Shown in pieces: positions 12,626-48,978 of a stretch of DNA of 64,000 bases (its first letter is position 1; each line of letters begins with the position of its first letter). The position numbers and the translations under genes were made by a program. This DNA comes from Octopus vulgaris. Lineage: Eukaryota. Where the stretch lies: positions 14,198,001 to 14,262,000 of the forward strand of contig OX597835.1 of NCBI GenBank assembly GCA_951406725.2, written 5' to 3'. The notes beneath the pieces are model-generated. The model had not been told where the DNA came from. It did no database searches and saw only the letters and a program-made list of their open reading frames with translations.

Positions 12626-13088
12626 CGCAATTGTCTGTACGTCTTACTTTTAAATCATGTATCTGTAATTTCGCCTTGTCATATTGTATCCCGCTGAAAT
12701 GGCCTATGAATTGCGTTAGAATTTGTATTTGTGGAATATTCACTCAAATCAACGTTAATTTCCAGAGTAGAAATAGTTAATTATATGCTTGTTTATCACC
12801 ACAGACGAAGAATCTACCATATTCACTTACAAAGTGTTGGTCTTATGTCAAAGTAGAATATGTTAGTTTTTCGTGAAGAGGAGAAAACGGATGTTTTGGA
12901 CAAACATTTCTCATTTCTTCCATTTTGTGAACTTTTTCTACTTACTATTTGCAAAAACATAGACCATCACTAGTTCCCTACGGTTTCACGAAGAAATCGT
13001 TAGTTGACCACTGTAATTGAGGCGCTGCTTGAAAAGATTTTGACTATTTTCGTGAATAAATTCAGAAAAATATCTCTCTCGCACTCTC

Positions 13089-18734: not shown

Positions 18735-19855
18735 TATTCTTTACTACTCTAGACACAATGCTCGACATTTTGTGGGAGGTGGGGCCAGTCGATTAGATCG
18801 ACTTCAGTACGCAACTGGTACTTAATTTATCGACACCCGAAAGGATGAAAAGCAAAATCGACCTCGGGGAATTTGAATTCAGAACGTAGTGGCACACGAA
18901 ATATCTATTTCTTTACTACCCATAAGGGGCTAAACACAGAGAGGACAAACAAGGACAGACAAACGGATTAAGTCGATTATATCGATCAAGTACGTAACTG
19001 GTACTTATTTAATCGACCCCAAAAGGATGAAAGGCAAAGTCGACCTCGGCGGAATTTGAACTCAGAACGTAGCGGCAGACGAAATACCTATTTCTTTACT
19101 ACCCACAAGGGGCTAAACACAGAGGGGACAAACAAGGACAGACAAAAACGGATTAAGTCAATTATATTGACCCCAGTGCGGGATCTTTTCATTTTGAACG
19201 GCACATGTCAACACAATTTCTAGTTAACTAAACACTAACCCTAAAACAGATTGAAATGCAATAGATCGATACTAGGGTTATAATTATGGGTGACATTTTC
19301 ATTTGATACCGCTAGAAAAAAATCCCATTTTCCGTAGCGTTGTCGTATGAAAATGTCACCCATAATTATAACCCAAGTATCGATCTATTGCATTTCAATC
19401 TGTTTTAGGGTTAGGGTTAGGGGTTGGGGAAGGGTATCTTTTTTACTTCGCAAATGTAAATAAACCCAATCTGTTTCTTAAACGAGGGACATATTCATAC
19501 AGCACGGAATGTTTTCACCCCAAATGGAGGTCAGCGATTGGTTAAAATTGCCGAAATGCTCAAAATTAAAGTGGAAATATCTTACAAACTATAGAATTTT
19601 CTCAATAAAGCCAAGAAAAAATGATGTTTTATAAACACATTCTACCAGTATACGAAGTTTAAATGTGTTTAGGTGACTAGAAATTGCCTTTCTAAAGGAA
19701 AAGACCCCTAGTGCGTAACTGGTACTTATTTAATCGCTCCCGAAAGGATGAAAGGCAAAGTCGACCTCGGTGGAATTTGAACTCAGAATGTAGCAGCAGA
19801 GGAAATACTGCTAAGCATTTCGCCCGGCGTGCTAACGTTTCTGCAGCTCGCCGCC
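18735..19855 (-). mobile_element. Tandem/nested SINE array: one head and three bodies, two of which end in a Tx1-like 3' tail; interrupted by a MITE
   Basis: Minus-strand order: head - body - tail(GCCCCTTGTGGGTAGTAAAGAAATA) - GGTATTTCGTCTGCC body - tail - GATATTTCGTGTGCC body - ordinary tail. Confidence 0.8.
19181..19707. mobile_element. Merlin-type MITE (11906-12625 family, left arm partly deleted) inserted in the SINE
   Basis: TIR GGATCTTTTC; TSD CCAGTGCG/CTAGTGCG; the SINE resumes on both sides. Confidence 0.8.
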
Positions 19856-25581: not shown

Positions 25582-26290
25582 TATATATATATATACACAC
25601 ACACACATACATACATATATATTTGGAATTTACAAAAGAAACGAACAAAAGACGAAGACGGGTGTGTAAACAGCCAACAGGTTTATTAGTTTAACGCTCC
25701 GGACTTAGGAAAATTTATATAGGGAGTACTACTAATTTTAAAAATTAGATATAGGGGACACAAGAATTCATTTATTCACCCCTATATAAAAAAAATTCCA
25801 CGACATTTGCATCATGCATTAACCACCTCGTACAGTCTAACCATGAGTATAATTAATGATGGTCGATAATTACTGAATCAACACCATAGAACACATATAC
25901 TAAATCGTATAGGCTTTGCATCAAGGAATCGCGTAGCATACTATACGCTAGTAATAGAAATAAAAACATATTATTAAATAAAATTACAGACATTTTAGTA
26001 TGTTGTAAGCATAAATATTTAGCGTCTTATAATTTTCTTAAACTTTAAAATTAAATTTTTAAAATATAAAACTGTAAAGCTTTTTGAAAATACTATCTGG
26101 ATTAGATCCAATGAATATTTATGCATAAATCTAAAATCTTAAATAATTTCTTTGTTATTGTAGTATATATCAGTAAAAAATGGAATATTCCCAAAATTGC
26201 ATGATTAACTAAATGATTTTCATTTCTCATTTAAACGTGGTAATTCTCTATAAAATACTGTCACTTATTCATCGAAATCAACGTGGAATC

Positions 26291-26307
26291 TCACCATATA
26301 GTGCCTT
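26291..26307 (+). other. Target/TSD sequence TCACCATATAGTGCCTT (repeated at 31548, 36683, 41938, 47208)
   Basis: Identical 17-mer at both ends of the array and at every A-A junction. Confidence 0.92.
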
Positions 26308-26563
26308 CGTGAACATCGATACTCAAAAACGAAACGTGAGTTTTTTGTCTGAAATAGTGTTGTTGAAAGTTAGTAGTTTATTGTTGCTGTGTTAATATTG
26401 TTATTTTGTGTCTTTTCAATAAGACGGTTAGTGGCCTTCGCGCGAAGGTTGTGTACGTAGTTCCCCCCCGTGGGGGAATTATTGTGTGCCTTCGTGTACG
26501 AAACACATTCAAAAACAAAAAAAAAAAAAAAAAATATTTTCTACTAACGGCTGCAAAGCCAGA

Positions 26564-27894
26564 ATGTCCTTGGAAGGCAGTGAATGCAAACTGGAAGGAA
26601 AATTCGAAATGGATTTCCCCATTACCTATTCACCCATCTCAGGTGATGAAGAATCTCAAACCTCGGGTGAGAGAAGCACGCCGGCGGTGACACCGGAAAA
26701 AGAATCGGCGGTAACGCCAGAACAAAAGGCCCCAACAAAGAAGTTTGCGGAAGTTGTTGGACGCAAACAGAAAGATATAGATATAGAAAACCTAGAGAAA
26801 TATGAAGACCTTCTAAAGAAAGAAGGAAATGAAATTGCAGTGAAAAAAGATATGGAAAAAAAGGAAGAGATAGAAAAGAAAAGAATTATATACAAGACAT
26901 ATAGCACGACTACAAAAAGCATACAAAAAGTGGAAGAATGCAAAATAGAGGAGTGCCTGAAGACAATCCGAAAAGATATCACTTACATAAATAGAGGAAG
27001 ACGGTTCGGAACAGTAGAAGTGAGGTTCAGAACCGAAGAAATAGCTAAGAAGCTATCCACAGAACCTCAGAAAGCGGGAAATCTAGTCCTTCTACCCTTG
27101 TACAAAGGAAGAAGGACTTCAAAGATAGTAATGAGAAATATTCCCCCAGAGGCAGACGCCTCATGCCTGGTGGCGGCAGTGATGCTGGGCCTGAAAGAAA
27201 AAATCAACATCCTCCAAGCTACAGTGGAGGAGGAGGGATTTTGGCAGGGCCAGATCATAACAATGGCTATACAAGCAGAGGCCCAGACTCTGGAAGAAAT
27301 ACCAGAGGTGCTGAGGCTAGATGAGGAGGAGCGAGTTCTAGTATTTGTAGAAGGAAGAAAACCGAGGTGCTTCGGCTGCGGAAAGAAGGGGCACGTGAGA
27401 GCGGAGTGTCAACCAAAACCGCAGGTAGAAGAACCGTCGGAGAAAGAAGAAACGGAGGAAAAAAAGGAAACCAAAGAGGTGGAAAAAGCTGCAGAAAAGG
27501 AAAAAGAAAACGAAAAAGAGGAGGGTGGTCTAAAGTTACCAAAAAAAAAACGGAAAACTGAAACCACCCCTCAAGAAGAAGAAAACCTAAAGAAAAGGAA
27601 AGAGGTTACTTCTTCATTTATGGCCATTAAGGCTACTAACAACAGACTTGTCAATGTGTTGGCAGCCATGGCCAAGGTGGAACGTATAAGGAAGATGAAA
27701 GACTTCATCATATATAAAATAGGCCGGAAGGACTACAGGAGGATAAAATCCGAGTTCTTCCACGACGTGGGCCCTCTGAGACTGGACATGTCTCCATATC
27801 TATACGAGGGCCTACGTCGGACTCCCCCACGAGCCAAAGAAAAAAAAATGAAGAAGAAGGCGAAACCGCCGAAAAAGCCAAACTACCGATATAA
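26564..27894 (+). CDS. ORF1p (RRM-like region plus CX2CX4HX4C knuckle); homopolymer indels shift the C-terminal frame
   Basis: CFGCGKKGHVRAEC. ATG at 26564 or 26609; stop inferred from copies 2 and 4. Confidence 0.8.
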
Positions 27895-27902
27895 GGTAAG
27901 TG

Positions 27903-30900
27903 ATGAACTACATTTGTGTTGGTTGTTTAAATGTGCGCGGCCTGGGATCAAGCGGGAAGCAAGGTCGCTTCCTTAATGATATCAGGTCGCGCAATTTGGA
28001 TGTTATTGTTGCTACAGAAACCCGGTTAAAGGGGCCAAGAGATCTACTCCCACTGTTTGACGGCTACGAGAGTTTTTTCTCTCCTGGCAGTCCTGCAGGC
28101 GGGAGTGGGGTGTTGGTCCTACTAAAAAGAAACCGGGTTTTTGAGAAAAAGTTAATTTTTTCAGACCCAGAAGGTAGGCTGGTCGTCATGGATTTGACGT
28201 TCAGTAACGGTAAAGTTATCAGACTGGTTGCAATTTACGCACCCTGCAATGGGCAAAGTGATTATTATCGCGATCTAGAGAACTTTCTCGGTACTTCGCA
28301 TTCAATAGTTGTGCTAGGAGACTTTAACACAATTTGCAAAGCGGATGTAGATTGTGTTGGCTCGAATGATAGAAAAGGTAACACATGCTTCCTGGAACTG
28401 CTAAGCCGCTTTGAGCTAGCAGATCCTTATAGGTTGGAATTTCCGAACGCTCCATTGTGGACATGGTCAAACAGCGACGGATCTTCCAGGTCATACATAG
28501 ATAGAATTCTAATTAGAAAGGTAGACAGTAAAATAGCTAAGCGTCCACAGTTTTACCAGATCAGCTACAGTGATCATAAAATGGTCACTTGTAAGCTTGA
28601 CATAGATAAGGTTAGAAAGAGAGGATCCGGTTACTGGAAACTTAATACGTCCCTTTTGGCGATTAAGGAGTACAGAGACCGGATTAGGACCATAATTCAG
28701 AGGGCGCTGTCTGGTGCCATCATTAATAACAAATGGTGGTACGCCCTCAAACGAGCCATCAAGTTTGAGTCTATTAGATATAGCATAGGAGTAGTGTCTA
28801 GAGAGGCTAGAAGGGAAACTACTCTAGTTAAGGAATTAGAGGAAGCCATGAAAACTGGCTCTGCGGCTCAGGTGGCGTCCAAGAGACTGGTGTTAAACCA
28901 GCACCTCGAGGCCAAACACATGGGTTGCATTGTCAGGGCTAGAATCCGTCATATGGGATGTGAAGGAATCAACGCCGTGAGATGGGCCCGAGTGGTGGAA
29001 GCCCGGAATGGCAACGATGCCACGATTCGATCTTTGAAGAACCAACAAGGTGAGTTGATGGACGAACCCGAGGAGATGTGTGAGGCCTTTCAGGAGCGCT
29101 TCGCTCAGCTTTTCGGTGAGTGCGGCGGGCTGGATAGGAGGAGGGCCTTTACGGACCTACTCGACGGGCTGCCGCGCTTATCGGGGCGAGATGCGGAGGG
29201 CTGTGAAGGGCCAATCACGCCTGAGGAGGTGGTGGAGGCAATGGCGGACTGCGGCGCGGGCAAGGCGCCGGGTTTGGATGGTCTACCCTACGAGTTATAT
29301 AAGAATATGCCAGACTTGTTCGGGCACCTACTGGCGGAAGTCTATGCGAACTGGCAGCAGAACGGGTTGATACCCAGATCTGTGCGCCGGGGAGTAGTGA
29401 CTCTCGTCAGAAAGGACCCGAGCAAGGGGGAGTGCATTGATAATTTCAGGCCCATCACTCTGCTAAACACAGAGTTGAAGATTTTGGCCAAAGTGTTATC
29501 GAAAAGATTGGCGCGTGTCGCGGATGGTCTGATCGGGGAGGCACAGACATGTGCCGTTCCGGGCAGAACCATTCAGGATAATCTCCATCTAATGCGGTAC
29601 ACTATAGAGGGGTTTAATAGTGATTCTGGCAAGGGTGGGGCACTGGTCCATTTAGACCAATCCAAAGCTTTTGATAGGGTCGACCATCGTTACCTGGTGT
29701 CTGCTCTGGCACAGTTCGGGCTGGGCCTTGGCTTCCTCAGGTGGATTATCCAAATTTACGACAACATCGACTCGGTAGTTCGGGTGAACGGCTTCTTGTC
29801 GAAGCCGTTCAAAATCAAACGCTCGGTTCGTCAAGGGTGTCCGCTCTCCCCGCTTTTGTACGTGATGGCTCTTGAGCCATTACTGCGAAAACTGAGCGGC
29901 ATCCCGAGACAGCCAGGTAATGGAAAATCAGTGTCAGCGTACGCGGACGACATCACCATCATCGTGACCGAAATGGACCACCTATGTAAAGTAGGCAAGG
30001 CCATAGAGGATTACGAGACGGTGACAGGAGCAAAAGTTAATCGCGAAAAGTCAGTCGGCTTGCAACTCGGCACCTGGAGAGGCAAGTCGATGCCTCCTGA
30101 CAGCGTCGTGGGACGTTGGACGGAGGGTCCGATTAAACTGCTAGGGGTCTGGTTCGGTCCAGACCTCCAAATAGAGAAGAATTGGGGCGAGGTAACGAGC
30201 AAGGTGGCTGCAGTAGCCAAGACCTGGTCTAGGCGGTGGCTATCCTTGAAAGGGAGGGCGGAGGTGGCCAATGTGTTTATCGCATCGGTTATCATCTACC
30301 GCCTTTCCGTCGTTCCATGCCCTGATTCGTGGTTGACCAAGTTGGAAAGACAGCTCTTCTACTTCCTGTGGAAGGGCAGGAAACCACTTGTGAAACGCTC
30401 TACTTGCTGTCAACAACCGTTAAAGGGTGGGCTAGGGATGCCTTGGCTGATGATGCGCAGACATGCGCTGAGGTTAAGACATCTGTGGCTCTACCTGGAT
30501 GGTGAACGGGTGTGGTCTCCGTTAGCAAAACTGATGTTTCCCAAGTTCACTAGTTTCGGTGGATGGGAAACCTGGTTGAATCGTAGATCGAAACTCGGTA
30601 CATGGTATACGGAGTGTCGAAAGGCCCTCCTGCTATTCCGTCGCTCGGGCAACGCCTGCGGTGGGGGTTCCACCACATTCTTCTATAGAGGGTTGGTAGA
30701 GGCGGAATGTGAAGACACCTTGGGGGAAACCCTGGGTCTCGACGATAATCAGCTGGCTAGTCTGTTCCGACGTACGTTCGGGCCGAAGACTCTGGACAAC
30801 TTCCAGAAGTCTCTGGCATGGCAATGCTACAGAGGAGCTCTACCTGTTCGGGATAAACTCGCAAGGCACGGTGGCCAAGACAGTCCGATGTGTCCAAGAT

Positions 30901-31292
30901 GCGGGCGGGATAGGGAAACCGTCCCGCACGCTATTGTTCATTGTTCGGACGTGTCTGAGGTGTGGGTTTATGCCGAACAGCTGTTGTCAAGCACACGAAG
31001 AGTACAGCTGTCGACTGAGTGTATTAAAAAAATTGACCCACCAGATTTCCTCGCGAAAGAAGGTAAGACTTGTTTTCTCGTTGTGGTAGCAATTGCGAAG
31101 GAGGTGATATGGAAGACGAGAATGAAAGGTATACGGTCAGGCAAGTTCATATCCGGCCCTGGGTTGATGAACTACTTCATCTACCACCTGAAAAGGAAGA
31201 TAGGGCTGGAGAGAAAATGCCTGACTAAAAGAGTGTATGAAGAACGATGGAAGGATGTAGCACGGAAGTTGAGAATGGATGACACCATATAA
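27903..31292 (+). CDS. ORF2p: APE endonuclease + reverse transcriptase + C-terminal CCHC, intact
   Basis: LNVRGL, ATET, LGDFN, YIDRI, YSDH, WKLN; KAPGLDG, FRPITLLN, DQSKAFDRV, RQGCPLSP, YADD; GGLG; CPRC..H..C. Confidence 0.96.
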   Translation: MNYICVGCLNVRGLGSSGKQGRFLNDIRSRNLDVIVATETRLKGPRDLLPLFDGYESFFSPGSPAGGSGVLVLLKRNRVFEKKLIFSDPEGRLVVMDLTFSNGKVIRLVAIYAPCNGQSDYYRDLENFLGTSHSIVVLGDFNTICKADVDCVGSNDRKGNTCFLELLSRFELADPYRLEFPNAPLWTWSNSDGSSRSYIDRILIRKVDSKIAKRPQFYQISYSDHKMVTCKLDIDKVRKRGSGYWKLNTSLLAIKEYRDRIRTIIQRALSGAIINNKWWYALKRAIKFESIRYSIGVVSREARRETTLVKELEEAMKTGSAAQVASKRLVLNQHLEAKHMGCIVRARIRHMGCEGINAVRWARVVEARNGNDATIRSLKNQQGELMDEPEEMCEAFQERFAQLFGECGGLDRRRAFTDLLDGLPRLSGRDAEGCEGPITPEEVVEAMADCGAGKAPGLDGLPYELYKNMPDLFGHLLAEVYANWQQNGLIPRSVRRGVVTLVRKDPSKGECIDNFRPITLLNTELKILAKVLSKRLARVADGLIGEAQTCAVPGRTIQDNLHLMRYTIEGFNSDSGKGGALVHLDQSKAFDRVDHRYLVSALAQFGLGLGFLRWIIQIYDNIDSVVRVNGFLSKPFKIKRSVRQGCPLSPLLYVMALEPLLRKLSGIPRQPGNGKSVSAYADDITIIVTEMDHLCKVGKAIEDYETVTGAKVNREKSVGLQLGTWRGKSMPPDSVVGRWTEGPIKLLGVWFGPDLQIEKNWGEVTSKVAAVAKTWSRRWLSLKGRAEVANVFIASVIIYRLSVVPCPDSWLTKLERQLFYFLWKGRKPLVKRSTCCQQPLKGGLGMPWLMMRRHALRLRHLWLYLDGERVWSPLAKLMFPKFTSFGGWETWLNRRSKLGTWYTECRKALLLFRRSGNACGGGSTTFFYRGLVEAECEDTLGETLGLDDNQLASLFRRTFGPKTLDNFQKSLAWQCYRGALPVRDKLARHGGQDSPMCPRCGRDRETVPHAIVHCSDVSEVWVYAEQLLSSTRRVQLSTECIKKIDPPDFLAKEGKTCFLVVVAIAKEVIWKTRMKGIRSGKFISGPGLMNYFIYHLKRKIGLERKCLTKRVYEERWKDVARKLRMDDTI

Positions 31293-31826
31293 ATGTAGAT
31301 CAAAACGAAACCAAAAGTATCAGTGGTGAGGCGGGGCTCGTGGGGTCCGAGCTGAACCCGCCCCCACTCCACCTGTAGTGTCTTCCGGTCTGTTTTTTCT
31401 CATTCGATTTTTATAATTTTTGCAATTTTTGTAAATTTTTGAAATTTTTAAACTCATACTTTTGTAACCTCATACGTGAATCTGACCCCACATCAGGTTG
31501 TATTGTCCCCTCTTTGTTGGCCCCTTGTGGGTAATAATAAAAGAATCTCACCATATAGTGCCTTCGTGAACATCGATACTCAAAAACGAAACGTGAGTTT
31601 TTTGTCTGAAATAGTGTTGTTGAAAGTTAGTAGTTTATTGTTGCTGTGTTAATATTGTTATTTTGTGTCTTTTTCAATAAGACGGTTAGTGGCCTTCGCG
31701 CGAAGGTTGTGTACGTAGTTCCCCCCCCGTGGGGGAATTATTGTGTGCCTTCGTGTACGAAACACATTCAAAAACAAAAAAAAAAAAAAAAAAAAAATAT
31801 TTTCTACTAACGGCTGCAAAGCCAGA

Positions 31827-33158
31827 ATGTCCTTGGAAGGCAGTGAATGCAAACTGGAAGGAAAATTCGAAATGGATTTCCCCATTACCTATTCACCCAT
31901 CTCAGGTGATGAAGAATCTCAAACCTCGGGTGAGAGAAGCACGCCGGCGGTGACACCGGAAAAAGAATCGGCGGTAACGCCAGAACAAAAGGCCCCAACA
32001 AAGAAGTTTGCGGAAGTTGTTGGACGCAAACAGAAAGATATAGATATAGAAAACCTAGAGAAATATGAAGACCTTCTAAAGAAAGAAGGAAATGAAATTG
32101 CAGTGAAAAAAGATATGGAAAAAAAGGAAGAGATAGAAAAGAAAAGAATTATATACAAGACATATAGCACGACTACAAAAAGCATACAAAAAGTGGAAGA
32201 ATGCAAAATAGAGGAGTGCCTGAAGACAATCCGAAAAGATATCACTTACATAAATAGAGGAAGACGGTTCGGAACAGTAGAAGTGAGGTTCAGAACCGAA
32301 GAAATAGCTAAGAAGCTATCCACAGAACCTCAGAAAGCGGGAAATCTAGTCCTTCTACCCTTGTACAAAGGAAGAAGGACTTCAAAGATAGTAATGAGAA
32401 ATATTCCCCCAGAGGCAGACGCCTCATGCCTGGTGGCGGCAGTGATGCTGGGCCTGAAAGAAAAAATCAACATCCTCCAAGCTACAGTGGAGGAGGAGGG
32501 ATTTTGGCAGGGCCAGATCATAACAATGGCTATACAAGCAGAGGCCCAGACTCTGGAAGAAATACCAGAGGTGCTGAGGCTAGATGAGGAGGAGCGAGTT
32601 CTAGTATTTGTAGAAGGAAGAAAACCGAGGTGCTTCGGCTGCGGAAAGAAGGGGCACGTGAGAGCGGAGTGTCAACCGAAACCGCAGGCAGAAGAACCGT
32701 CGGAGAAAGAAGAAACGGAGGAAAAAAAGGAAACCAAAGAGGTGGAAAAAGCTGCAGAAAAGGAAAAAGAAAACGAAAAAGAGGAGGGGTGGTCTAAAGT
32801 TACCAAAAAAAAACGGAAAACTGAAACCACCCCTCAAGAAGAAGAAAACCTAAAGAAAAGGAAAGAGGTTACTTCTTCATTTATGGCCATTAAGGCTACT
32901 AACAACAGACTTGTCAATGTGTTGGCAGCCATGGCCAAGGTGGAACGTGTAAGGAAGATGAAAGACTTCATCATATATAAAATAGGCCGGAAGGACTACA
33001 GGAGGATAAAATCCGAGTTCTTCCACGACGTGGGCCCTCTGAGACTGGACATGTCTCCATATCTATACGAGGGCCTACGTCGGACTCCCCCACGAGCCAA
33101 AGAAAAAAAAAATGAAGAAGAAGGCGAAACCGCCGAAAAAGCCAAACTACCGATATAA
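31827..33158 (+). CDS. ORF1p, intact
   Basis: Continuous ORF with CCHC knuckle; stops 8 nt before the ORF2 ATG. Confidence 0.88.
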   Translation: MSLEGSECKLEGKFEMDFPITYSPISGDEESQTSGERSTPAVTPEKESAVTPEQKAPTKKFAEVVGRKQKDIDIENLEKYEDLLKKEGNEIAVKKDMEKKEEIEKKRIIYKTYSTTTKSIQKVEECKIEECLKTIRKDITYINRGRRFGTVEVRFRTEEIAKKLSTEPQKAGNLVLLPLYKGRRTSKIVMRNIPPEADASCLVAAVMLGLKEKINILQATVEEEGFWQGQIITMAIQAEAQTLEEIPEVLRLDEEERVLVFVEGRKPRCFGCGKKGHVRAECQPKPQAEEPSEKEETEEKKETKEVEKAAEKEKENEKEEGWSKVTKKKRKTETTPQEEENLKKRKEVTSSFMAIKATNNRLVNVLAAMAKVERVRKMKDFIIYKIGRKDYRRIKSEFFHDVGPLRLDMSPYLYEGLRRTPPRAKEKKNEEEGETAEKAKLPI

Positions 33159-33166
33159 GGTAAGTG

Positions 33167-36100
33167 ATGAACTACATTTGTGTTGGTTGTTTAAATGTGC
33201 GCGGCCTGGGATCAAGCGGGAAGCAAGGTCGCTTCCTTAATGATATCAGGTCGCGCAATTTGGATGTTATTGTTGCTACAGAAACCCGGTTAAAGGGGCC
33301 AAGAGATCTACTCCCACTGTTTGACGGCTACGAGAGTTTTTCTCTCCTGGCAGTCCTGCAGGCGGGAGTGGGGTGTTGGTCCTACTAAAAAGAAACCGGG
33401 TTTTTGAGAAAAAGTTAATTTTTTCAGACCCAGAAGGTAGGCTGGTCGTCATGGATTTGACGTTCAGTAACGGTAAAGTTATCAGACTGGTTGCAATTTA
33501 CGCACCCTGCAATGGGCAAAGTGATTATTATCGCGATCTAGAGAACTTTCTCGGTACTTCGCATTCAATAGTTGTGCTAGGAGACTTTAACACAATTTGC
33601 AAAGCGGATGTAGATTGTGTTGGCTCGAATGATAGAAAAGGTAACACATGCTTCCTGGAACTGCTAAGCCGCTTTGAGCTAGCAGATCCTTATAGGTTGG
33701 AATTTCCGAACGCTCCATTGTGGACATGGTCAAACAGCGACGGATCTTCCAGGTCATACATAGATAGAATTCTAATTAGAAAGGTAGACAGTAAAATAGC
33801 TAAGCGTCCACAGTTTTACCAGATCAGCTACAGTGATCATAAAATGGTCACTTGTAAGCTTGACATAGATAAGGTTAGAAAGAGAGGATCCGGTTACTGG
33901 AAACTTAATACGTCCCTTTTGGCGATTAAGGAGTACAGAGACCGGATTAGGACCATAATTCAGAGGGCGCTGTCTGGTGCCATCATTAATAACAAATGGT
34001 GGTACGCCCTCAAACGAGCCATCAAGTTTGAGTCTATTAGATATAGCATAGGAGTAGTGTCTAGAGAGGCTAGAAGGGAAACTACTCTAGTTAAGGAATT
34101 AGAGGAAGCCATGAAAACTGGCTCTGCGGCTCAGGTGGCGTCCAAGAGACTGGTGTTAAACCAGCACCTCGAGGCCAAACACATGGGTTGCATTGTCAGG
34201 GCTAGAATCCGTCATATGGGATGTGAAGGAATCAACGCCGTGAGATGGGCCCGAGTGGTGGAAGCCCGGAATGGGCACGATTCGATCGTTTGAAGAACCA
34301 ACAAGGTGAGTTTGGACGAACCCGAGGAGATGTGTGAGGCTCTTCAGGAGCGCTTCGCTCAGCTTTTCGGTGAGTGCGGCTTTGAACGGACCTACCAACA
34401 AGGTGATGGAGGGCTGTGAATGCCAATCATGCGCTGACGAGGTGGTGGAACAATGGCGGACTGCGGCGCGGGAGGAGATGTGGTCTACCCTACGAGTTAT
34501 ATAAGAATATGCCAGACTTGTTCGGTGGATAACTGGTTGAATCGTAGATCGAAACTGCAGCAGAAGGAGTGTCGAATCTGTGCGTTGCTATTCCGTCGCT
34601 CGAAGGCAACGCCTGCGGTGGAGGGTTCCACCATCATCTTCTATAGAGGGTTGGTAGAGGCGGAAAGTGAAGACACCTTGGGGGAAACGCGGGTCTCGAC
34701 GATAATCAGCTGGCTAGTCTGTTCCGACAGTACGTTCCGGGCAGAACCATTGGAAACGCATCTAATGCGGTACAACATAGAGGAGCTCTAGTGTTCGGGG
34801 TGGGCACTGGTCCAAGACCAATCCAAGATGCTGATAGGGAAACCGTCCCGCACGCTATTCGTTATTGTCTTCGGACGTTCTGAGGTGTGGGTTTTGCCGA
34901 ACAGCTGTTGTCAAGCACACGAAGAGTACAGCTGTCGAAGCCGTTCAAAATCAAACGCTCGGTTCGTCAAGGGTGTCCGCTCTCCCGCTTTTGTACGTGA
35001 TGGCTCTTGAGCCATTACTGCGAAAAGAGCGGCATCCCGAGACAGCCAGGTAATGGAAAATCAGTGTCAGCGTACATGGCGGACGACATCACCATCATCG
35101 TGACCGAAATGGACCACCTATGTAAAGTAGGCAAGGCCATAGAGGATTACGAGACGGTGACAGGAGCAAAAAGTTAATCGCGAAAAGTCAGTCGGCTTGC
35201 AACTCGGCACCTGGAGGCAAGTCGATGCCTCCTGACAGCGTCGTGGGACGTTGGACGGAGGGTCCGATTAAACTGCTAGGGGTCTGGTTCGGTCCAGACC
35301 TCCAAATAGAGAAGAATTGGGGCGAGGTAACGAGCAAGGTGGCTGCAGTAGCCAAGACCTGGTCTAGGCGGTGGCTATCCTTGAAAGGGAGGGCGGAGGT
35401 GGCCAATGTGTTTATCGCATCGGTTATCATCTACCGCCTTTCCGTCGTTCCATGCCCTGATTCGTGGTTGACCAAGTTGGAAAGACAGCTCTTCTACTTC
35501 CTGTGGAAGGGCAGGAAACCACTTGTGAAACGCTCTACTTGCTGTCAACAACCGTTAAAGGGTGGGCTAGGGATGCCTTGGCTGATGATGCGCAGACATG
35601 CGCTGAGGTTAAGACATCTGTGGCTCTACCTGGATGGTGAACGGGTGTGGTCTCCGTTAGCAAAACTGATGTTTCCCAAGTTCACTAGTTTCGGTGGATG
35701 GGAAACCTGGTTGAATCGTAGATCGAAACTCGGTACATGGTATACGGAGTGTCGAAAGGCCCTCCTGCTATTCCGTCGCTCGGGCAACGCCTGCGGTGGG
35801 GGTTCCACCACATTCTTCTATAGAGGGTTGGTAGAGGCGGAATGTGAAGACACCTTGGGGGAAACCCTGGGTCTCGACGATAATCAGCTGGCTAGTCTGT
35901 TCCGACGTACGTTCGGGCCGAAGACTCTGGACAACTTCCAGAAGTCTCTGGCATGGCAATGCTACAGAGGAGCTCTACCTGTTCGGGATAAACTCGCAAG
36001 GCACGGTGGCCAAGACAGTCCGATGTGTCCAAGATGCGGGCGGGATAGGGAAACCGTCCCGCACGCTATTGTTCATTGTTCGGACGTGTCTGAGGTGTGG

Positions 36101-36427
36101 GTTTATGCCGAACAGCTGTTGTCAAGCACACGAAGAGTACAGCTGTCGACTGAGTGTATTAAAAAAATTGACCCACCAGATTTCCTCGCGAAAGAAGGTA
36201 AGACTTGTTTTCTCGTTGTGGTAGCAATTGCGAAGGAGGTGATATGGAAGACGAGAATGAAAGGTATACGGTCAGGCAAGTTCATATCCGGCCCTGGGTT
36301 GATGAACTACTTCATCTACCACCTGAAAAGGAAGATAGGGCTGGAGAGAAAATGCCTGACTAAAAGAGTGTATGAAGAACGATGGAAGGATGTAGCACGG
36401 AAGTTGAGAATGGATGACACCATATAA
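33167..36427 (+). pseudogene. ORF2, disrupted (frameshift near 33340; scrambled RT region, probably an assembly artefact)
   Basis: Fragments 33164-33388, 33373-34293 and 35225-36427 match the intact ORF2. Confidence 0.8.
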
Positions 36428-36953
36428 ATGTAGATCAAAACGAAACCAAAAGTATCAGTGGTGAGGCGGGGCTCGTGGGGTCCGAGCTGAACCCGCCCCC
36501 ACTCCACCTGTAGTGTCTTCCGGTCTGTTTTTTCTCATTCGATTTTTATAATTTTTGCAATTTTTGTAAATTTTTGAAATTTTTAAACTCATACTTTTGT
36601 AACCTCATACGTGAATCTGACCCCACATCAGGTTGTATTGTCCCCTCTTTGTTGGCCCCTTGTGGGTAATAATAAAAGAATCTCACCATATAGTGCCTTC
36701 GTGAACATCGATACTCAAAAACGAAACGTGAGTTTTTTGTCTGAAATAGTGTTGTTGAAAGTTAGTAGTTTATTGTTGCTGTGTTAATATTGTTATTTTG
36801 TGTCTTTTCAATAAGACGGTTAGTGGCCTTCGCGCGAAGGTTGTGTACGTAGTTCCCCCCCGTGGGGGAATTATTGTGTGCCTTCGTGTACGAAACACAT
36901 TCAAAAACAAAAAAAAAAAAAAAATATTTTCTACTAACGGCTGCAAAGCCAGA

Positions 36954-38282
36954 ATGTCCTTGGAAGGCAGTGAATGCAAACTGGAAGGAAAATTCGAAAT
37001 GGATTTCCCCATTACCTATTCACCCATCTCAGGTGATGAAGAATCTCAAACCTCGGGTGAGAGAAGCACGCCGGCGGTGACACCGGAAAAAGAATCGGCG
37101 GTAACGCCAGAACAAAAGGCCCCAACAAAGAAGTTTGCGGAAGTTGTTGGACGCAAACAGAAAGATATAGATATAGAAAACCTAGAGAAATATGAAGACC
37201 TTCTAAAGAAAGAAGGAAATGAAATTGCAGTGAAAAAAGATATGGAAAAAAAGGAAGAGATAGAAAAGAAAAGAATTATATACAAGACATATAGCACGAC
37301 TACAAAAAGCATACAAAAAGTGGAAGAATGCAAAATAGAGGAGTGCCTGAAGACAATCCGAAAAGATATCACTTACATAAATAGAGGAAGACGGTTCGGA
37401 ACAGTAGAAGTGAGGTTCAGAACCGAAGAAATAGCTAAGAAGCTATCCACAGAACCTCAGAAAGCGGGAAATCTAGTCCTTCTACCCTTGTACAAAGGAA
37501 GAAGGACTTCAAAGATAGTAATGAGAAATATTCCCCCAGAGGCAGACGCCTCATGCCTGGTGGCGGCAGTGATGCTGGGCCTGAAAGAAAAAATCAACAT
37601 CCTCCAAGCTACAGTGGAGGAGGAGGGATTTTGGCAGGGCCAGATCATAACAATGGCTATACAAGCAGAGGCCCAGACTCTGGAAGAAATACCAGAGGTG
37701 CTGAGGCTAGATGAGGAGGAGCGAGTTCTAGTATTTGTAGAAGGAAGAAAACCGAGGTGCTTCGGCTGCGGAAAGAAGGGGCACGTGAGAGCGGAGTGTC
37801 AACCGAAACCGCAGGCAGAAGAACCGTCGGAGAAAGAAGAAACGGAGGAAAAAAGGAAACCAAAGAGGTGGAAAAAGCTGCAGAAAAGGAAAAAGAAAAC
37901 GAAAAGAGGAGGGGTGGTCTAAAGTTACCAAAAAAAAACGGAAAACTGAAACCACCCCTCAAGAAGAAGAAAACCTAAAGAAAAGGAAAGAGGTTACTTC
38001 TTCATTTATGGCCATTAAGGCTACTAACAACAGACTTGTCAATGTGTTGGCAGCCATGGCCAAGGTGGAACGTGTAAGGAAGATGAAAGACTTCATCATA
38101 TATAAAATAGGCCGGAAGGACTACAGGAGGATAAAATCCGAGTTCTTCCACGACGTGGGCCCTCTGAGACTGGACATGTCTCCATATCTATACGAGGGCC
38201 TACGTCGGACTCCCCCACGAGCCAAAGAAAAAAAAATGAAGAAGAAGGCGAAACCGCCGAAAAAGCCAAACTACCGATATAA
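36954..38282 (+). CDS. ORF1p with homopolymer frameshifts at ~37850-37910 and ~38230 (possible sequencing errors)
   Basis: Pieces 36798-37922 and 38008-38364 match copy 2. Confidence 0.7.
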
Positions 38283-38290
38283 GGTAAGTG

Positions 38291-41200
38291 ATGAACTACA
38301 TTTGTGTTGGTTGTTTAAATGTGCGCGGCCTGGGATCAAGCGGGAAGCAAGGTCGCTTCCTTAATGATATCAGGTCGCGCAATTTGGATGTTATTGTTGC
38401 TACAGAAACCCGGTTAAAGGGGCCAAGAGATCTACTCCCACTGTTTGACGGCTACGAGAGTTTTTTCTCTCCTGGCAGTCCTGCAGGCGGGAGTGGGGTG
38501 TTGGTCCTACTAAAAAGAAACCGGGTTTTTGAGAAAAAGTTAATTTTTTCAGACCCAGAAGGTAGGCTGGTCGTCATGGATTTGACGTTCAGTAACGGTA
38601 AAGTTATCAGACTGGTTGCAATTTACGCACCCTGCAATGGGCAAAGTGATTATTATCGCGATCTAGAGAACTTTCTCGGTACTTCGCATTCAATAGTTGT
38701 GCTAGGAGACTTTAACACAATTTGCAAAGCGGATGTAGATTGTGTTGGCTCGAATGATAGAAAAGGTAACACATGCTTCCTGGAACTGCTAAGCCGCTTT
38801 GAGCTAGCAGATCCTTATAGGTTGGAATTTCCGAACGCTCCATTGTGGACATGGTCAAACAGCGACGGATCTTCCAGGTCATACATAGATAGAATTCTAA
38901 TTAGAAAGGTAGACAGTAAAATAGCTAAGCGTCCACAGTTTTACCAGATCAGCTACAGTGATCATAAAATGGTCACTTGTAAGCTTGACATAGATAAGGT
39001 TAGAAAGAGAGGATCCGGTTACTGGAAACTTAATACGTCCCTTTTGGCGATTAAGGAGTACAGAGACCGGATTAGGACCATAATTCAGAGGGCGCTGTCT
39101 GGTGCCATCATTAATAACAAATGGTGGTACGCCCTCAAACGAGCCATCAAGTTTGAGTCTATTAGATATAGCATAGGAGTAGTGTCTAGAGAGGCTAGAA
39201 GGGAAACTACTCTAGTTAAGGAATTAGAGGAAGCCATGAAAACTGGCTCTGCGGCTCAGGTGGCGTCCAAGAGACTGGTGTTAAACCAGCACCTCGAGGC
39301 CAAACACATGGGTTGCATTGTCAGGGCTAGAATCCGTCATATGGGATGTGAAGGAATCAACGCCGTGAGATGGGCCCGAGTGGTGGAAGCCCGGAATGGC
39401 AACGATGCCACGATTCGATCTTTGAAGAACCAACAAGGTGAGTTGATGGACGAACCCGAGGAGATGTGTGAGGCCTTTCAGGAGCGCTTCGCTCAGCTTT
39501 TCGGTGAGTGCGGCGGGCTGGATAGGAGGAGGGCCTTTACGGACCTACTCGACGGGCTGCCGCGCTTATCGGGGCGAGATGCGGAGGGCTGTGAAGGGCC
39601 AATCACGCCTGAGGAGGTGGTGGAGGCAATGGCGGACTGCGGCGCGGGCAAGGCGCCGGGTTTGGATGGTCTACCCTACGAGTTATATAAGAATATGCCA
39701 GACTTGTTCGGGCACCTACTGGCGGAAGTCTATGCGAACTGGCAGCAGAACGGGTTGATACCCAGATCTGTGCGCCGGGGAGTAGTGACTCTCGTCAGAA
39801 AGGACCCGAGCAAGGGGGAGTGCATTGATAATTTCAGGCCCATCACTCTGCTAAACACAGAGTTGAAGATTTTGGCCAAAGTGTTATCGAAAAGATTGGC
39901 GCGTGTCGCGGATGGTCTGATCGGGGAGGCACAGACATGTGCCGTTCCGGGCAGAACCATTCAGGATAATCTCCATCTAATGCGGTACACTATAGAGGGG
40001 TTTAATAGTGATTCTGGCAAGGGTGGGGCACTGGTCCATTTAGACCAATCCAAAGCTTTTGATAGGGTCGACCATCGTTACCTGGTGTCTGCTCTGGCAC
40101 AGTTCGGGCTGGGCCTTGGCTTCCTCAGGTGGATTATCCAAATTTACGACAACATCGACTCGGTAGTTCGGGTGAACGGCTTCTTGTCGAAGCCGTTCAA
40201 AATCAAACGCTCGGTTCGTCAAGGGTGTCCGCTCTCCCCGCTTTTGTACGTGATGGCTCTTGAGCCATTACTGCGAAAACTGAGCGGCATCCCGAGACAG
40301 CCAGGTAATGGAAAATCAGTGTCAGCGTACGCGGACGACATCACCATCATCGTGACCGAAATGGACCACCTATGTAAAGTAGGCAAGGCCATAGAGGATT
40401 ACGAGACGGTGACAGGAGCAAAAGTTAATCGCGAAAAGTCAGTCGGCTTGCAACTCGGCACCTGGAGAGGCAAGTCGATGCCTCCTGACAGCGTCGTGGG
40501 ACGTTGGACGGAGGGTCCGATTAAACTGCTAGGGGTCTGGTTCGGTCCAGACCTCCAAATAGAGAAGAATTGGGGCGAGGTAACGAGCAAGGTGGCTGCA
40601 GTAGCCAAGACCTGGTCTAGGCGGTGGCTATCCTTGAAAGGGAGGGCGGAGGTGGCCAATGTGTTTATCGCATCGGTTATCATCTACCGCCTTTCCGTCG
40701 TTCCATGCCCTGATTCGTGGTTGACCAAGTTGGAAAGACAGCTCTTCTACTTCCTGTGGAAGGGCAGGAAACCACTTGTGAAACGCTCTACTTGCTGTCA
40801 ACAACCGTTAAAGGGTGGGCTAGGGATGCCTTGGCTGATGATGCGCAGACATGCGCTGAGGTTAAGACATCTGTGGCTCTACCTGGATGGTGAACGGGTG
40901 TGGTCTCCGTTAGCAAAACTGATGTTTCCCAAGTTCACTAGTTTCGGTGGATGGGAAACCTGGTTGAATCGTAGATCGAAACTCGGTACATGGTATACGG
41001 AGTGTCGAAAGGCCCTCCTGCTATTCCGTCGCTCGGGCAACGCCTGCGGTGGGGGTTCCACCACATTCTTCTATAGAGGGTTGGTAGAGGCGGAATGTGA
41101 AGACACCTTGGGGGAAACCCTGGGTCTCGACGATAATCAGCTGGCTAGTCTGTTCCGACGTACGTTCGGGCCGAAGACTCTGGACAACTTCCAGAAGTCT

Positions 41201-41680
41201 CTGGCATGGCAATGCTACAGAGGAGCTCTACCTGTTCGGGATAAACTCGCAAGGCACGGTGGCCAAGACAGTCCGATGTGTCCAAGATGCGGGCGGGATA
41301 GGGAAACCGTCCCGCACGCTATTGTTCATTGTTCGGACGTGTCTGAGGTGTGGGTTTATGCCGAACAGCTGTTGTCAAGCACACGAAGAGTACAGCTGTC
41401 GACTGAGTGTATTAAAAAAATTGACCCACCAGATTTCCTCGCGAAAGAAGGTAAGACTTGTTTTCTCGTTGTGGTAGCAATTGCGAAGGAGGTGATATGG
41501 AAGACGAGAATGAAAGGTATACGGTCAGGCAAGTTCATATCCGGCCCTGGGTTGATGAACTACTTCATCTACCACCTGAAAAGGAAGATAGGGCTGGAGA
41601 GAAAATGCCTGACTAAAAGAGTGTATGAAGAACGATGGAAGGATGTAGCACGGAAGTTGAGAATGGATGACACCATATAA
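38291..41680 (+). CDS. ORF2p APE-RT, intact
   Basis: Translation appears identical to copy 1. Confidence 0.96.
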   Translation: MNYICVGCLNVRGLGSSGKQGRFLNDIRSRNLDVIVATETRLKGPRDLLPLFDGYESFFSPGSPAGGSGVLVLLKRNRVFEKKLIFSDPEGRLVVMDLTFSNGKVIRLVAIYAPCNGQSDYYRDLENFLGTSHSIVVLGDFNTICKADVDCVGSNDRKGNTCFLELLSRFELADPYRLEFPNAPLWTWSNSDGSSRSYIDRILIRKVDSKIAKRPQFYQISYSDHKMVTCKLDIDKVRKRGSGYWKLNTSLLAIKEYRDRIRTIIQRALSGAIINNKWWYALKRAIKFESIRYSIGVVSREARRETTLVKELEEAMKTGSAAQVASKRLVLNQHLEAKHMGCIVRARIRHMGCEGINAVRWARVVEARNGNDATIRSLKNQQGELMDEPEEMCEAFQERFAQLFGECGGLDRRRAFTDLLDGLPRLSGRDAEGCEGPITPEEVVEAMADCGAGKAPGLDGLPYELYKNMPDLFGHLLAEVYANWQQNGLIPRSVRRGVVTLVRKDPSKGECIDNFRPITLLNTELKILAKVLSKRLARVADGLIGEAQTCAVPGRTIQDNLHLMRYTIEGFNSDSGKGGALVHLDQSKAFDRVDHRYLVSALAQFGLGLGFLRWIIQIYDNIDSVVRVNGFLSKPFKIKRSVRQGCPLSPLLYVMALEPLLRKLSGIPRQPGNGKSVSAYADDITIIVTEMDHLCKVGKAIEDYETVTGAKVNREKSVGLQLGTWRGKSMPPDSVVGRWTEGPIKLLGVWFGPDLQIEKNWGEVTSKVAAVAKTWSRRWLSLKGRAEVANVFIASVIIYRLSVVPCPDSWLTKLERQLFYFLWKGRKPLVKRSTCCQQPLKGGLGMPWLMMRRHALRLRHLWLYLDGERVWSPLAKLMFPKFTSFGGWETWLNRRSKLGTWYTECRKALLLFRRSGNACGGGSTTFFYRGLVEAECEDTLGETLGLDDNQLASLFRRTFGPKTLDNFQKSLAWQCYRGALPVRDKLARHGGQDSPMCPRCGRDRETVPHAIVHCSDVSEVWVYAEQLLSSTRRVQLSTECIKKIDPPDFLAKEGKTCFLVVVAIAKEVIWKTRMKGIRSGKFISGPGLMNYFIYHLKRKIGLERKCLTKRVYEERWKDVARKLRMDDTI

Positions 41681-42218
41681 ATGTAGATCAAAACGAAACC
41701 AAAAGTATCAGTGGTGAGGCGGGGCTCGTGGGGTCCGAGCTGAACCCGCCCCCACTCCACCTGTAGTGTCTTCCGGTCTGTTTTTTTTCTCATTCGATTT
41801 TTATAATTTTTGCAATTTTTGTAAATTTTTGAAATTTTTAAACTCATACTTTTGTAACCTCATACGTGAATCTGACCCCACATCAGGTTGTATTGTCCCC
41901 TCTTTGTTGGCCCCTTGTGGGTAATAATAAAAGAATCTCACCATATAGTGCCTTCGTGAACATCGATACTCAAAAACGAAACGTGAGTTTTTTTGTCTGA
42001 AATAGTGTTGTTGAATTGAAAGTTAGTAGTTTATTGTTGCTGTGTTAATATTGTTATTTTGTGTCTTTTCAATAAGACGGTTAGTGGCCTTCGCGCGAAG
42101 GTTGTGTACGTAGTTCCCCCCCGTGGGGGAATTATTGTGTGCCTTCGTGTACGAAACACATTCAAAAACAAAAAAAAAAAAAAAAAAAATATTTTCTACT
42201 AACGGCTGCAAAGCCAGA

Positions 42219-43547
42219 ATGTCTTTGGAAGGCAGTGAATGCAAACTGGAAGGAAAATTCGAAATGGATTTCCCCATTACCTATTCACCCATCTCAGGTG
42301 ATGAAGAATCTCAAACCTCGGGTGAGAGAAGCACGCCGGCGGTGACACCGGAAAAAGAATCGGCGGTAACGCCAGAACAAAAGGCCCCAACAAAGAAGTT
42401 TGCGGAAGTTGTTGGACGCAAACAGAAAAATATAGATATAGAAAACCTAGAGAAATATGAAGACCTTCTAAAGAAAGAAGGAAATGAAATTGCAGTGAAA
42501 AAAGATATGGAAAAAAAGGAAGAGATAGAAAAGAAAAGAATTATATACAAGACATACAGCATGACTACAAAAAGCATACAAAAAGTGGAAGAATGCAAAA
42601 TAGAGGAGTGCCTGAAGACAATCAGAAAAGATATCACTTACATAAATAGAGGAAGACGGTTCGGAACAGTAGAAGTGAGGTTCAGAACCGAAGAAATAGC
42701 TAAGAAGCTATCCACAGAACCTCAGAAAGCGGGAAATCTAGTCCTTCTACCCTTGTACAAAGGAAGAAGGACTTCAAAGATAGTAATGAGAAATATTCCC
42801 CCAGAGGCAGACGCCTCATGCCTGGTGGCGGCAGTGATGCTGGGCCTGAAAGAAAAAATCAACATCCTCCAAGCTACAGTGGAGGAGGAGGGATTTTGGC
42901 AGGGCCAGATCATAACAATGGCTATACAAGCAGAGGCCCAGACTCTGGAAGAAATACCAGAGGTGCTGAGGCTAGATGAGGAGGAGCGAGTTCTAGTATT
43001 TGTAGAAGGAAGAAAACCGAGGTGCTTCGGCTGCGGAAAGAAGGGGCACGTGAGAGCGGAGTGTCAACCGAAACCGCAGGCAGAAGAACCGTCGGAGAAA
43101 GAAGAAACGGAGGAAAAAAAGGAAACCAAAGAGGTGGAAAAAGCTGCAGAAAAGGAAAAAGAAAACGAAAAAGAGGAGGGGTGGTCTAAAGTTACCAAAA
43201 AAAAACGGAAAACTGAAACCACCCCTCAAGAAGAAGAAAACCTAAAGAAAAGGAAAGAGGTTACTTCTTCATTTATGGCCATTAAGGCTACTAACAACAG
43301 ACTTGTCAATGTGTTGGCAGCCATGGCCAAGGTGGAACGTGTAAGGAAGATGAAAGACTTCATCATATATAAAATAGGCCGGAAGGACTACAGGAGGATA
43401 AAATCCGAGTTCTTCCACGACGTGGGCCCTCTGAGACTGGACATGTCTCCATATCTATACGAGGGCCTACGTCGGACTCCCCCACGAGCCAAAGAAAAAA
43501 ATGAAGAAGAAGGCGAAACCGCCGAAAAAGCCAAACTACCGATATAA
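42219..43547 (+). CDS. ORF1p, intact
   Basis: Continuous ORF with CCHC knuckle. Confidence 0.88.
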   Translation: MSLEGSECKLEGKFEMDFPITYSPISGDEESQTSGERSTPAVTPEKESAVTPEQKAPTKKFAEVVGRKQKNIDIENLEKYEDLLKKEGNEIAVKKDMEKKEEIEKKRIIYKTYSMTTKSIQKVEECKIEECLKTIRKDITYINRGRRFGTVEVRFRTEEIAKKLSTEPQKAGNLVLLPLYKGRRTSKIVMRNIPPEADASCLVAAVMLGLKEKINILQATVEEEGFWQGQIITMAIQAEAQTLEEIPEVLRLDEEERVLVFVEGRKPRCFGCGKKGHVRAECQPKPQAEEPSEKEETEEKKETKEVEKAAEKEKENEKEEGWSKVTKKKRKTETTPQEEENLKKRKEVTSSFMAIKATNNRLVNVLAAMAKVERVRKMKDFIIYKIGRKDYRRIKSEFFHDVGPLRLDMSPYLYEGLRRTPPRAKEKNEEEGETAEKAKLPI

Positions 43548-43555
43548 GGTAAGTG

Positions 43556-46500: not shown

Positions 46501-46951
46501 ACCTGTTCGGGATAAACTCGCAAGGCACGGTGGCCAAGACAGTCCGATGTGTCCAAGATGCGGGCGGGATAGGGAAACCGTCCCGCACGCTATTGTTCAT
46601 TGTTCGGACGTGTCTGAGGTGTGGGTTTATGCCGAACAGCTGTTGTCAAGCACACGAAGAGTACAGCTGTCGACTGAGTGTATTAAAAAAATTGACCCAC
46701 CAGATTTCCTCGCGAAAGAAGGTAAGACTTGTTTTCTCGTTGTGGTAGCAATTGCGAAGGAGGTGATATGGAAGACGAGAATGAAAGGTATACGGTCAGG
46801 CAAGTTCATATCCGGCCCTGGGTTGATGAACTACTTCATCTACCACCTGAAAAGGAAGATAGGGCTGGAGAGAAAATGCCTGACTAAAAGAGTGTATGAA
46901 GAACGATGGAAGGATGTAGCACGGAAGTTGAGAATGGATGACACCACATAA
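43556..46951 (+). CDS. ORF2p APE-RT, intact (2 aa longer)
   Basis: Same motifs as copy 1; APCSNNGQ vs APCNGQ. Confidence 0.96.
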   Translation: MNYICVGCLNVRGLGSSGKQGRFLNDIRSRNLDVIVATETRLKGPRDLLPLFDGYESFFSPGSPAGGSGVLVLLKRNRVFEKKLIFSDPEGRLVVMDLTFSNGKVIRLVAIYAPCSNNGQSDYYRDLENFLGTSHSIVVLGDFNTICKADVDCVGSNDRKGNTCFLELLSRFELADPYRLEFPNAPLWTWSNSDGSSRSYIDRILIRKVDSKIAKRPQFYPISYSDHKMVTCKLDIDKVRKRGSGYWKLNTSLLAIKEYRDRIRTIIQRALSGAIINNKWWYALKRAIKFESIRYSIGVVSREARRETTLVKELEEAMKTGSAAQVASKRLVLNQHLEAKHMGCIVRARIRHMGCEGINAVRWARVVEARNGNDATIRSLKNQQGELIDEPEEMCEAFQEHFAQLFGECGGLDRRRAFTDLLDGLPRLSGRDAEGCEGPITPEEVVEAMADCGAGKAPGLDGLPYELYKNMPDLFGHLLAEVYANWQQNGLIPRSVRRGVVTLVRKDPSKGECIDNFRPITLLNTELKILAKVLSKRLARVADGLIGEAQTCAVPGRTIQDNLHLMRYTIEGFNSDSGKGGALVHLDQSKAFDRVDHRYLVSALAQFGLGLGFLRWIIQIYDNIDSVVRVNGFLSKPFKIKRSVRQGCPLSPLLYVMALEPLLRKLSGIPRQPGNGKSVSAYADDITIIVTEMDHLCKVGKAIEDYETVTGAKVNREKSVGLQLGTWRGKSMPPDSVVGRWTEGPIKLLGVWFGPDLQIEKNWGEVTSKVAAVAKTWSRRWLSLKGRAEVANVFIASVIIYRLSVVPCPDSWLTKLERQLFYFLWKGRKPLVKRSTCCQQPLKGGLGMPWLMMRRHALRLRHLWLYLDGERVWSPLAKLMFPKFTSFGGWETWLNRRSKLGTWYTECRKALLLFRRSGNACGGGSTTFFYRGLVEAECEDTLGETLGLDDNQLASLFRRTFGPKTLDNFQKSLAWQCYRGALPVRDKLARHGGQDSPMCPRCGRDRETVPHAIVHCSDVSEVWVYAEQLLSSTRRVQLSTECIKKIDPPDFLAKEGKTCFLVVVAIAKEVIWKTRMKGIRSGKFISGPGLMNYFIYHLKRKIGLERKCLTKRVYEERWKDVARKLRMDDTT

Positions 46952-47241
46952 ATGTAGATCAAAACGAAACCAAAAGTATCAGTGGTGAGGCGGGGCTCGT
47001 GGGGTCCGAGCTGAACCCGCCCCCACTCCACCTGTAGTGTCTTCCGGTCTGTTTTTTCTCATTCGATTTTTATAATTTTTGCAATTTTTGTAAATTTTTG
47101 AAATTTTTAAACTCATACTTTTGTAACCTCATACGTGAATCTGACCCCACATCAGGTTGTATTGTCCCCTCTTTGTTGGCCCCTTGTGGGTAATAATAAA
47201 AGAATGGTCACCATATAGTGCCTTACTGCTTTCTGCTTTCT

Positions 47242-48976: not shown

Positions 48977-48978
48977 CA

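Follow-up and report, generated by a model that had tools for sequence, protein, structure and literature searches.

A 3′ tail shared between a short interspersed element (SINE) and a partner long interspersed element (LINE) is textbook material. Such sharing is standard for partners from L2, CR1 and RTE (PMC3747384; here and below, published systems are cited from portions of the papers named). The published view makes LINEs of the L1 clade the exception: among 58 SINE/LINE pairs in one survey, 3 SINEs have L1-clade tails, all from plants or algae (maize/sorghum and Chlamydomonas), and the part used here names none with Tx1 and none from a mollusc (PMC3747384). It is left open in print there whether L1 began as a stringent or as a relaxed element. 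In a 2026 repeat annotation of Octopus vulgaris, 13 L1-Tx1 families count as recently active and most SINEs are unclassified (PMC13282606), and a word search of its main text finds neither ‘tail’ nor ‘partner’. The published papers searched contained no case of an animal Tx1 or L1 element whose tail is also carried by a SINE, with Repbase and the 1994 octopus SINE paper outside the comparison. Here we describe a 64-kb stretch of the O. vulgaris genome (contig OX597835.1, positions 14,198,001 to 14,262,000; the window) in which a 45-base tail is common to a SINE, a LINE family (A) and two elements, B1 and B2, that carry only the first open reading frame (ORF1). In our view the tail is probably the conserved 3′ end of a large L1-group, probably Tx1, lineage, and its passengers likely carry it through recognition by the ORF2 protein without poly(A).

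The initial annotation had quoted this tail from the SINE, family A, B1 and B2, and all four are present where it had placed them. The features concerned are as follows.

47162..47205, plus strand: tail of the fourth copy of family A; the same tail starts at 31503, 36638 and 41893
near 48936-48975, plus strand: tail of B1, by sequence match
near 50680-50716, plus strand: tail of B2, by sequence match
18735..19180, minus strand: multimeric SINE copy, 5′-truncated (partial unit, full unit, last unit)
19089..19131, minus strand: first LINE-type tail of the SINE copy, internal and running on into the SINE head at its position 47
18906..18948, minus strand: second LINE-type tail of the SINE copy, internal
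18735..18795, minus strand: tail of a second type, the true 3′ end of the SINE copy, from its sequence

An 18-base tail probe has 8 matches in the window (2 in the SINE on the minus strand, 4 in family A and 2 in B) against 0.05 expected and none in 100 shuffles, and a gapped tail pattern has 6 matches against 0 in its control. In global alignments the 45-base SINE tail scores 26 with A, 20 with B1 and 17 with B2; the shuffle maxima are 5, 4 and 2, and 0/5000 shuffles reach the observed score in each case, so the similarity is significant for all three. Among representatives picked by eye and mutually related, SINE–LINE identity in the last 45 bases is 0.71-0.89 for 26 of 27 non-SINE sequences (the exception, L083, has 0.51), and only 0.23-0.67 in three 35-base blocks upstream of the tail. 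The elements had been called otherwise unrelated as DNA. This is right for A and B as far as DNA goes, where they have the tail alone in common (28 bases, 82 per cent), but their ORF1 proteins are homologous (35.6 per cent identity over 216 amino acids, E 8e-48), which makes B a relative of A.

Genome-wide, the 18-base core of the tail has 123,839 exact matches (61,946 + 61,893), and the reversed core has 0. The first 30 loci were all SINE copies. We collected 112 distinct SINE tails, using 70 targeted loci at the beginning of a single contig together with 40 random stretches of 10 kb: 58 are terminal, 47 are followed by SINE head position 47 and 7 by head position 14. Target duplications of 10-20 bp start at the tail end in 32/58 terminal tails (cut-off score at least 9; 1.7 per cent among 174 swapped flanks used as control), and the tail therefore acts as the 3′ end in many SINE copies. 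The duplications around the A array (17 bp) and the B array (18 bp) are of similar length. No poly(A) was seen at the 58 terminal SINE tails, nor at any LINE junction read (families A, C, E and the A subfamilies). Contigs from public runs of three organisms accumulate over the tail and stop at either edge of it, so that the sharing extends past one assembly (one run may be the source sample). Across the genome-wide search and the SINE and LINE loci the motif is over-represented where elements end, at their 3′ side, and it is carried by two classes of passenger, the SINE and the ORF1-only elements, the latter point as had been proposed.

The tail is also kept across the LINE lineage. It lies a few hundred bases past the ORF2 stop in 22/22 of the family A ends that were read (at the other 8/30 loci the anchor was missed), and it was found in 30/30 loci of family C (ORF2 end ~53 per cent identical to A), 28/30 loci of family E (~60-66 per cent) and 40/40 copies of subfamilies 90-96 per cent identical to A. 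It persists, then, among LINE families with ORF2 C-termini 52-100 per cent identical, and ORF1-only elements at the target repeat of A are tail-terminated too. Insertion sites differ among the same families. Family A ends enter the target repeat or the next tandem copy in 19/22 cases; the 90 per cent subfamily lies at one base of another repeat in 18/20 copies; an intermediate set of A subfamilies uses at least 4 fixed sites; family C runs into (TC)n in 28/30 loci and family D into (TATC)n in 2/2. Because families with different targets all keep the tail, it belongs to the element and not to the target.

Over the subfamily loci as a whole (L393-L432), members 4-10 per cent apart in the ORF2 C-terminus use at least 5 fixed target sites, and one copy (L411) sits within the tRNA-like head of another SINE. 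Two loci were considered as a second SINE and rejected, L115 having an ORF2 upstream and L090 a LINE-like 3′ untranslated region (UTR). Metagenomes yielded 80 relatives (24-44 per cent identical), and the tail was present in 0/19 of their downstream stretches, read by eye; these relatives are too distant to test conservation of the tail across phyla. Four of the metagenome LINEs (L226, L231, L236, L237) have U2 small nuclear RNA flanks, as in Keno. A protein atlas search returned only reverse transcriptase (RT) and endonuclease families, and matches to a short peptide were for the most part family A itself and its near kin.

The coding capacity of the lineage is seen best in the tandem arrays of the window, whose parts are these.

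26308..47205, plus strand: LINE family A, four copies head-to-tail, ~5.3 kb each, starting at 26308, 31565, 36700 and 41955
26432..27976, plus strand: stop-to-stop ORF1 frame in A copy 1; a CCHC zinc knuckle is present, and Pfam gives no match
43553..46951, plus strand: ORF2 of A copy 4, 1132 amino acids, with an apurinic/apyrimidinic (AP)-type endonuclease, RT and zf-RVT
47238..50716, plus strand: ORF1-only elements B1 and B2, head-to-tail, both tail-terminated
47238-48975, plus strand: B1, reading frame broken
48976-50716, plus strand: B2, frame at 49068-50564
26291..26307 (left) and 47208-47224 (right), plus strand: 17-base target duplication of the A array
47220..47237 (left) and 50717-50734 (right), plus strand: 18-base target duplication of the B array
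25971..26307 (left part) and from 50717 (right part), plus strand: multi-copy target repeat of A and B

The LINE lineage belongs to the L1 group, its ORF2 having the layout of that group (AP endonuclease, RT and a C-terminal zinc domain). The best PDB match of ORF2 is human L1 ORF2p (E 4e-71; R2, E 1e-24), and the nearest named homolog, from Argonauta hians, is 64 per cent identical across the RT region. A CCHC knuckle in ORF1 is a feature of Tx1, not one unique to it; together with the target specificity, including (TC)n as in Kibi, it makes Tx1 the probable clade. In an RT tree of 101 sequences, built without named reference elements, the Argonauta protein and unnamed homologs group with family A in one clade (support 1.0); the node that links this clade to the U2-flanked, Keno-like loci is weak (0.84). 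The B elements have an ORF1 homologous to that of the autonomous family, no ORF2 and a target duplication of their own, as HAL1 elements do. Copies of the 17-base target word separate the A copies. In A copy 2 the ORF2 is internally rearranged; a degenerate partial ORF2 duplicate there (34521-34938, 79 per cent identical, with a deletion) reflects rearrangement or an assembly error. Shortly past the ORF2 stop lies a G+C-rich, partly self-complementary motif (46990-47025; at the same place in L039, L046, L047 and L155) that seems to be kept among LINE families, unlike the AT-rich central stretch of the 3′ UTR.

How the tail would work can be sketched from these sequences. The ORF2 protein of the lineage would bind the 45-base tail of the RNA, a short hairpin in it perhaps forming part of the signal, and reverse transcription would start at a nearly fixed point ~10 bases past the hairpin with no need for poly(A). 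Recognition by the lineage would in that case be stringent. The SINE may have gained the tail from a member of the lineage by template switching. RNA running on past the tail could pair with the nicked target, and such pairing might bias insertion toward sites like the SINE's own head, which would yield head-to-tail multimers.

The hairpin itself is plausible but weak as a prediction. A stem of at least 4 pairs stands directly before the poly(A)-signal-like hexamer in 27/30 hand-picked representatives, against 17 per cent of 1006 random hexamer sites and 28 per cent of shuffles; many tails fold into a longer interrupted hairpin with the hexamer within the lower stem, and 90 per cent of stem cells are paired in the aligned tails against 39-52 per cent with slid partners.

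A number of results count against the proposal as a whole. For the hairpin, two-sided change occurs in just 2/11 stem pairs, the covariation score (0.096) is near that of slid controls (up to 0.088), RNAalifold retains a 3-pair stem only, single tails fold with no clear margin over shuffles (z -0.16 to -1.78) and the lower stem of the window SINE variant is poorly paired. The presence of the hexamer means that part of the tail's conservation may serve 3′ processing. For the tail as a SINE 3′ end, 26/58 terminal tails have no duplication, and about 4 of the 32 duplications lie in simple repeats (L009 is possibly spurious). The kinship of the hand-picked representatives belongs here too. As to the partner, SINE copies are dispersed at sites that do not match the target of family A, and no LINE family was found with SINE likeness past the tail (best tail identity 0.89).

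That last pair of results bears on the reading of family A as the SINE's specific partner, which is not supported and is unlikely. Family A copies are 99.6 per cent identical to their majority and occupy one target repeat, while SINE copies stand at ~93.5 per cent; families C and E, at 99.1 and 95.7 per cent, are like A represented by top matches only, sets biased toward young copies. The SINE tail agrees best with L039, L137 and L139 (the 0.89 just given) and at 0.80-0.84 with A. Because A is younger and target-restricted and the better tail matches lie elsewhere, the partner is likely an older, less target-restricted member of the lineage. A pattern in which a LINE-like leader immediately precedes the longer SINE tail has 4 candidate matches. 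Some terminal SINE copies (L010, L014, L016/L017, L018, L184) lie at similar sites within one other repeat family.

The bases that follow the tail are not random with respect to the tail itself. After the commonest tail variant, which has a non-canonical hexamer, two guanines come next in 18/30 terminal copies and head position 47 in 32/32 internal cases. The canonical-hexamer variant is more often followed by the start of head position 14 (terminal 6/18, internal 5/9), and the variant predicts the following bases for terminal junctions and inside multimers (Fisher p 0.0014 and 0.0002). In five duplications examined by eye (L006, L186, L191, L203, L211) the right copy matches the continuation of the SINE where the left copy differs; L013 does not fit this read-through pattern. 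These junctions suggest that RNA past the tail pairs with the primer strand. Partner LINEs with differing endonuclease preferences account for the junction bias as well, and that the SINE uses the tail while the link between variant and site, and the multimers, stem from such enzymes and not from pairing is a real possibility, if short of a probable one. Near-identical subfamilies do hit different fixed targets, and target starts have a short consensus in common. The five read-through duplications speak against it, as does the absence of any LINE end running into this SINE's head (0/40). Generalized to an animal L1/Tx1 lineage that would choose RNA by a structured tail, measure its RT start from that tail and let pairing of read-through RNA steer the landing site, the pairing idea is possible yet rather doubtful. 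If true, it would explain the SINE and ORF1-only passengers, the SINE multimers and the tandem LINE arrays, as well as fast target change between subfamilies 90-96 per cent identical, and it would be an animal case of the stringent L1-clade recognition so far reported just for green plants.

It is unlikely that the tail is instead a 3′-processing or polyadenylation signal, with a relaxed RT and a captured tail that merely gives the SINE RNA a usable 3′ end. The hexamer is indeed the most conserved block of the tail and the hairpin is weak; crocodilian SINEU elements are passengers of Tx1 with poly(A) and without a shared tail (PMC4494074), and the distant metagenome relatives end in A-rich runs without this tail. 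Set against this are the LINE and SINE junctions read, free of poly(A), the non-canonical hexamer of the commonest SINE variant, the conservation of 35 more bases upstream of the hexamer and ends fixed to within a few bases. SINE copies meet their 3′ flank at a constant point, the end of the tail, although the SINE unit has no regular RNA polymerase III terminator (a four-T run in 35/108 units).

The window copy itself could be read as a composite SINE in which the LINE-type tail is a relic middle, the whole being moved by another LINE through the second tail type. Its order fits: a partial unit with a LINE-type tail, a 183-base full unit with a LINE-type tail, and a final unit with the second tail type. 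Since the copy is a multimer with this other terminal tail, the positions at which the initial annotation had seen a SINE 3′ end mark two internal tails, and the idea that the LINE-type tail last moved this copy is not supported. Its last jump was likely primed at the second tail type. No convincing target duplication flanks the window copy (longest flank word in common, 7 bases). The second tail type is a working 3′ end too: a 23-base probe has 5,925 exact genome matches, and 10/30 such tails have target duplications against 0.8 per cent in the control. A LINE-type tail lies at most 800 bases upstream of 16/30 second-type tails, and 54/112 LINE-type tails are internal. As a general account, all the same, the relic reading is refuted by the 58/112 tails that are terminal, 32 of them with duplications at the tail end, and we regard it as very improbable. 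It is scarcely credible that the tails are alike by chance, that they converged on a motif of low complexity or that the LINEs took the tail from SINE insertions: the shared stretch is short and partly low-complexity, but 0/5000 shuffles match it and the tail, which varies by family, stands at a constant distance past the ORF2 stop. We thus return to a conserved LINE 3′ end used by passengers as the best explanation.

The SINE monomer has 231 bases; when one mismatch is tolerated, box-like motifs start at 10 and 74 or thereabouts, and it shows features of a tRNA-derived SINE: it is short and non-coding, with A- and B-box-like motifs and target duplications. Neither ARAGORN nor Rfam found a tRNA in it. 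One head and body occurs with different 3′ ends, random 400 kb holding 88 matches to the SINE body, 24 to the LINE-type tail (2 of them LINE ends) and 9 to the second tail. No LINE owner of the second-type tail was found. That tail (18735-18795; L333-L362) has a short hairpin; its loop resembles the one in the LINE-type tail, and the ends of both are rich in purines. At G000:C1:15779646-15780173 it recurs six times with a 101-base period in a SINE-derived tandem array. Adjoining the window SINE copy is a palindromic repeat family with short telomere-like hexamer runs (11941-12633 and 19177-19708).

The target repeat of A and B has 18 genome matches to one probe and 63 to another. Counted by eye, 14 of 30 target-repeat loci contain an element of the LINE lineage, the remaining 16 being empty sites. 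The repeat gathers insertions of many LINE and ORF1-only families within a span of ~100 bases (25971-26307, 50717-50830; L033-L048, L119-L148). Its upstream part has promoter-like motifs, and in L036, L040 and L048 an ORF1 element lies on the opposite strand, facing outward, a layout as if around a two-way promoter. No Rfam family reaches its gathering score in the window, and an E-value search of 5 target-repeat loci gave only sub-threshold microRNA matches (L038, L048). When contigs of four runs were aligned to an empty target site, most of the signal came from a high-copy repeat embedded there, and a splice joint was not seen. A few kb before the window begins there is a second family A array with this target repeat (G000:C22:14183395-14194811), and window positions 1-1115 are repeated at 93 per cent at 53989-55048; the target region itself is duplicated. 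Satellite blocks occupy 1116-3305, 3737-5136, 55113-55579, 55672-56393 and 56888-64000, and comprise a 5-base repeat (438 copies), AT-rich 29/58-base repeats at both ends, a 6-base repeat and a 73-base repeat (~10 copies).

The question about the ancestral L1 becomes directly testable in an animal L1/Tx1 lineage that has intact young copies, a defined 45-base tail and two passenger classes. The lineage is also the likely driver of a SINE whose copies number well above 100,000, and its near-identical enzymes, which differ in target, form a natural series.

Among described systems, UnaL2/UnaSINE, ZfL2 and the bivalve V- and CORE-SINEs (PMC3747384, PMC4176376, PMC4824008) resemble the octopus pair in that SINE and LINE share just the 3′ end. 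Like the L2, CR1 and RTE pairs, it has a short, here predicted, stem-loop near the end, apparently no need for poly(A) and tail swapping on a shared SINE body; unlike them, its LINE is in the L1 group, lacks a terminal short tandem repeat and has a weaker predicted stem. Crocodilian SINEU and Tx1-Mar (PMC4494074) offer SINE-like Tx1 passengers, tandem insertions and Tx1 elements that target repeats or microsatellites. SINEU differs in its small nuclear RNA heads and poly(A), and its description reports no LINE with which it has a 3′ end in common, the partnership being deduced from shared targets (PMC4494074); the octopus SINE has a tail in common with its LINEs, and family A's target is not among its sites. 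Families C and D, at (TC)n and (TATC)n, are by description like the microsatellite-targeting Tx1 elements Kibi and Koshi (PMC4494074). The B elements recall the ORF1-only HAL1 LINEs (PMC5786205) in keeping a homologous ORF1 without ORF2 and with their own duplication, and differ in sharing with their helper a putatively structured tail, not poly(A), and the same target repeat. Also comparable are LINE1-1_ZM with ZmSINE2/3 and L1-1_CR with SINEX-3_CR, L1-clade pairs with a conserved ~45-base 3′ end and a predicted hairpin (PMC3472496, PMC3747384). Compared with these plant and algal pairs, the octopus lineage is animal and target-specific, is without poly(A) and has ORF1-only passengers as well (PMC3472496).
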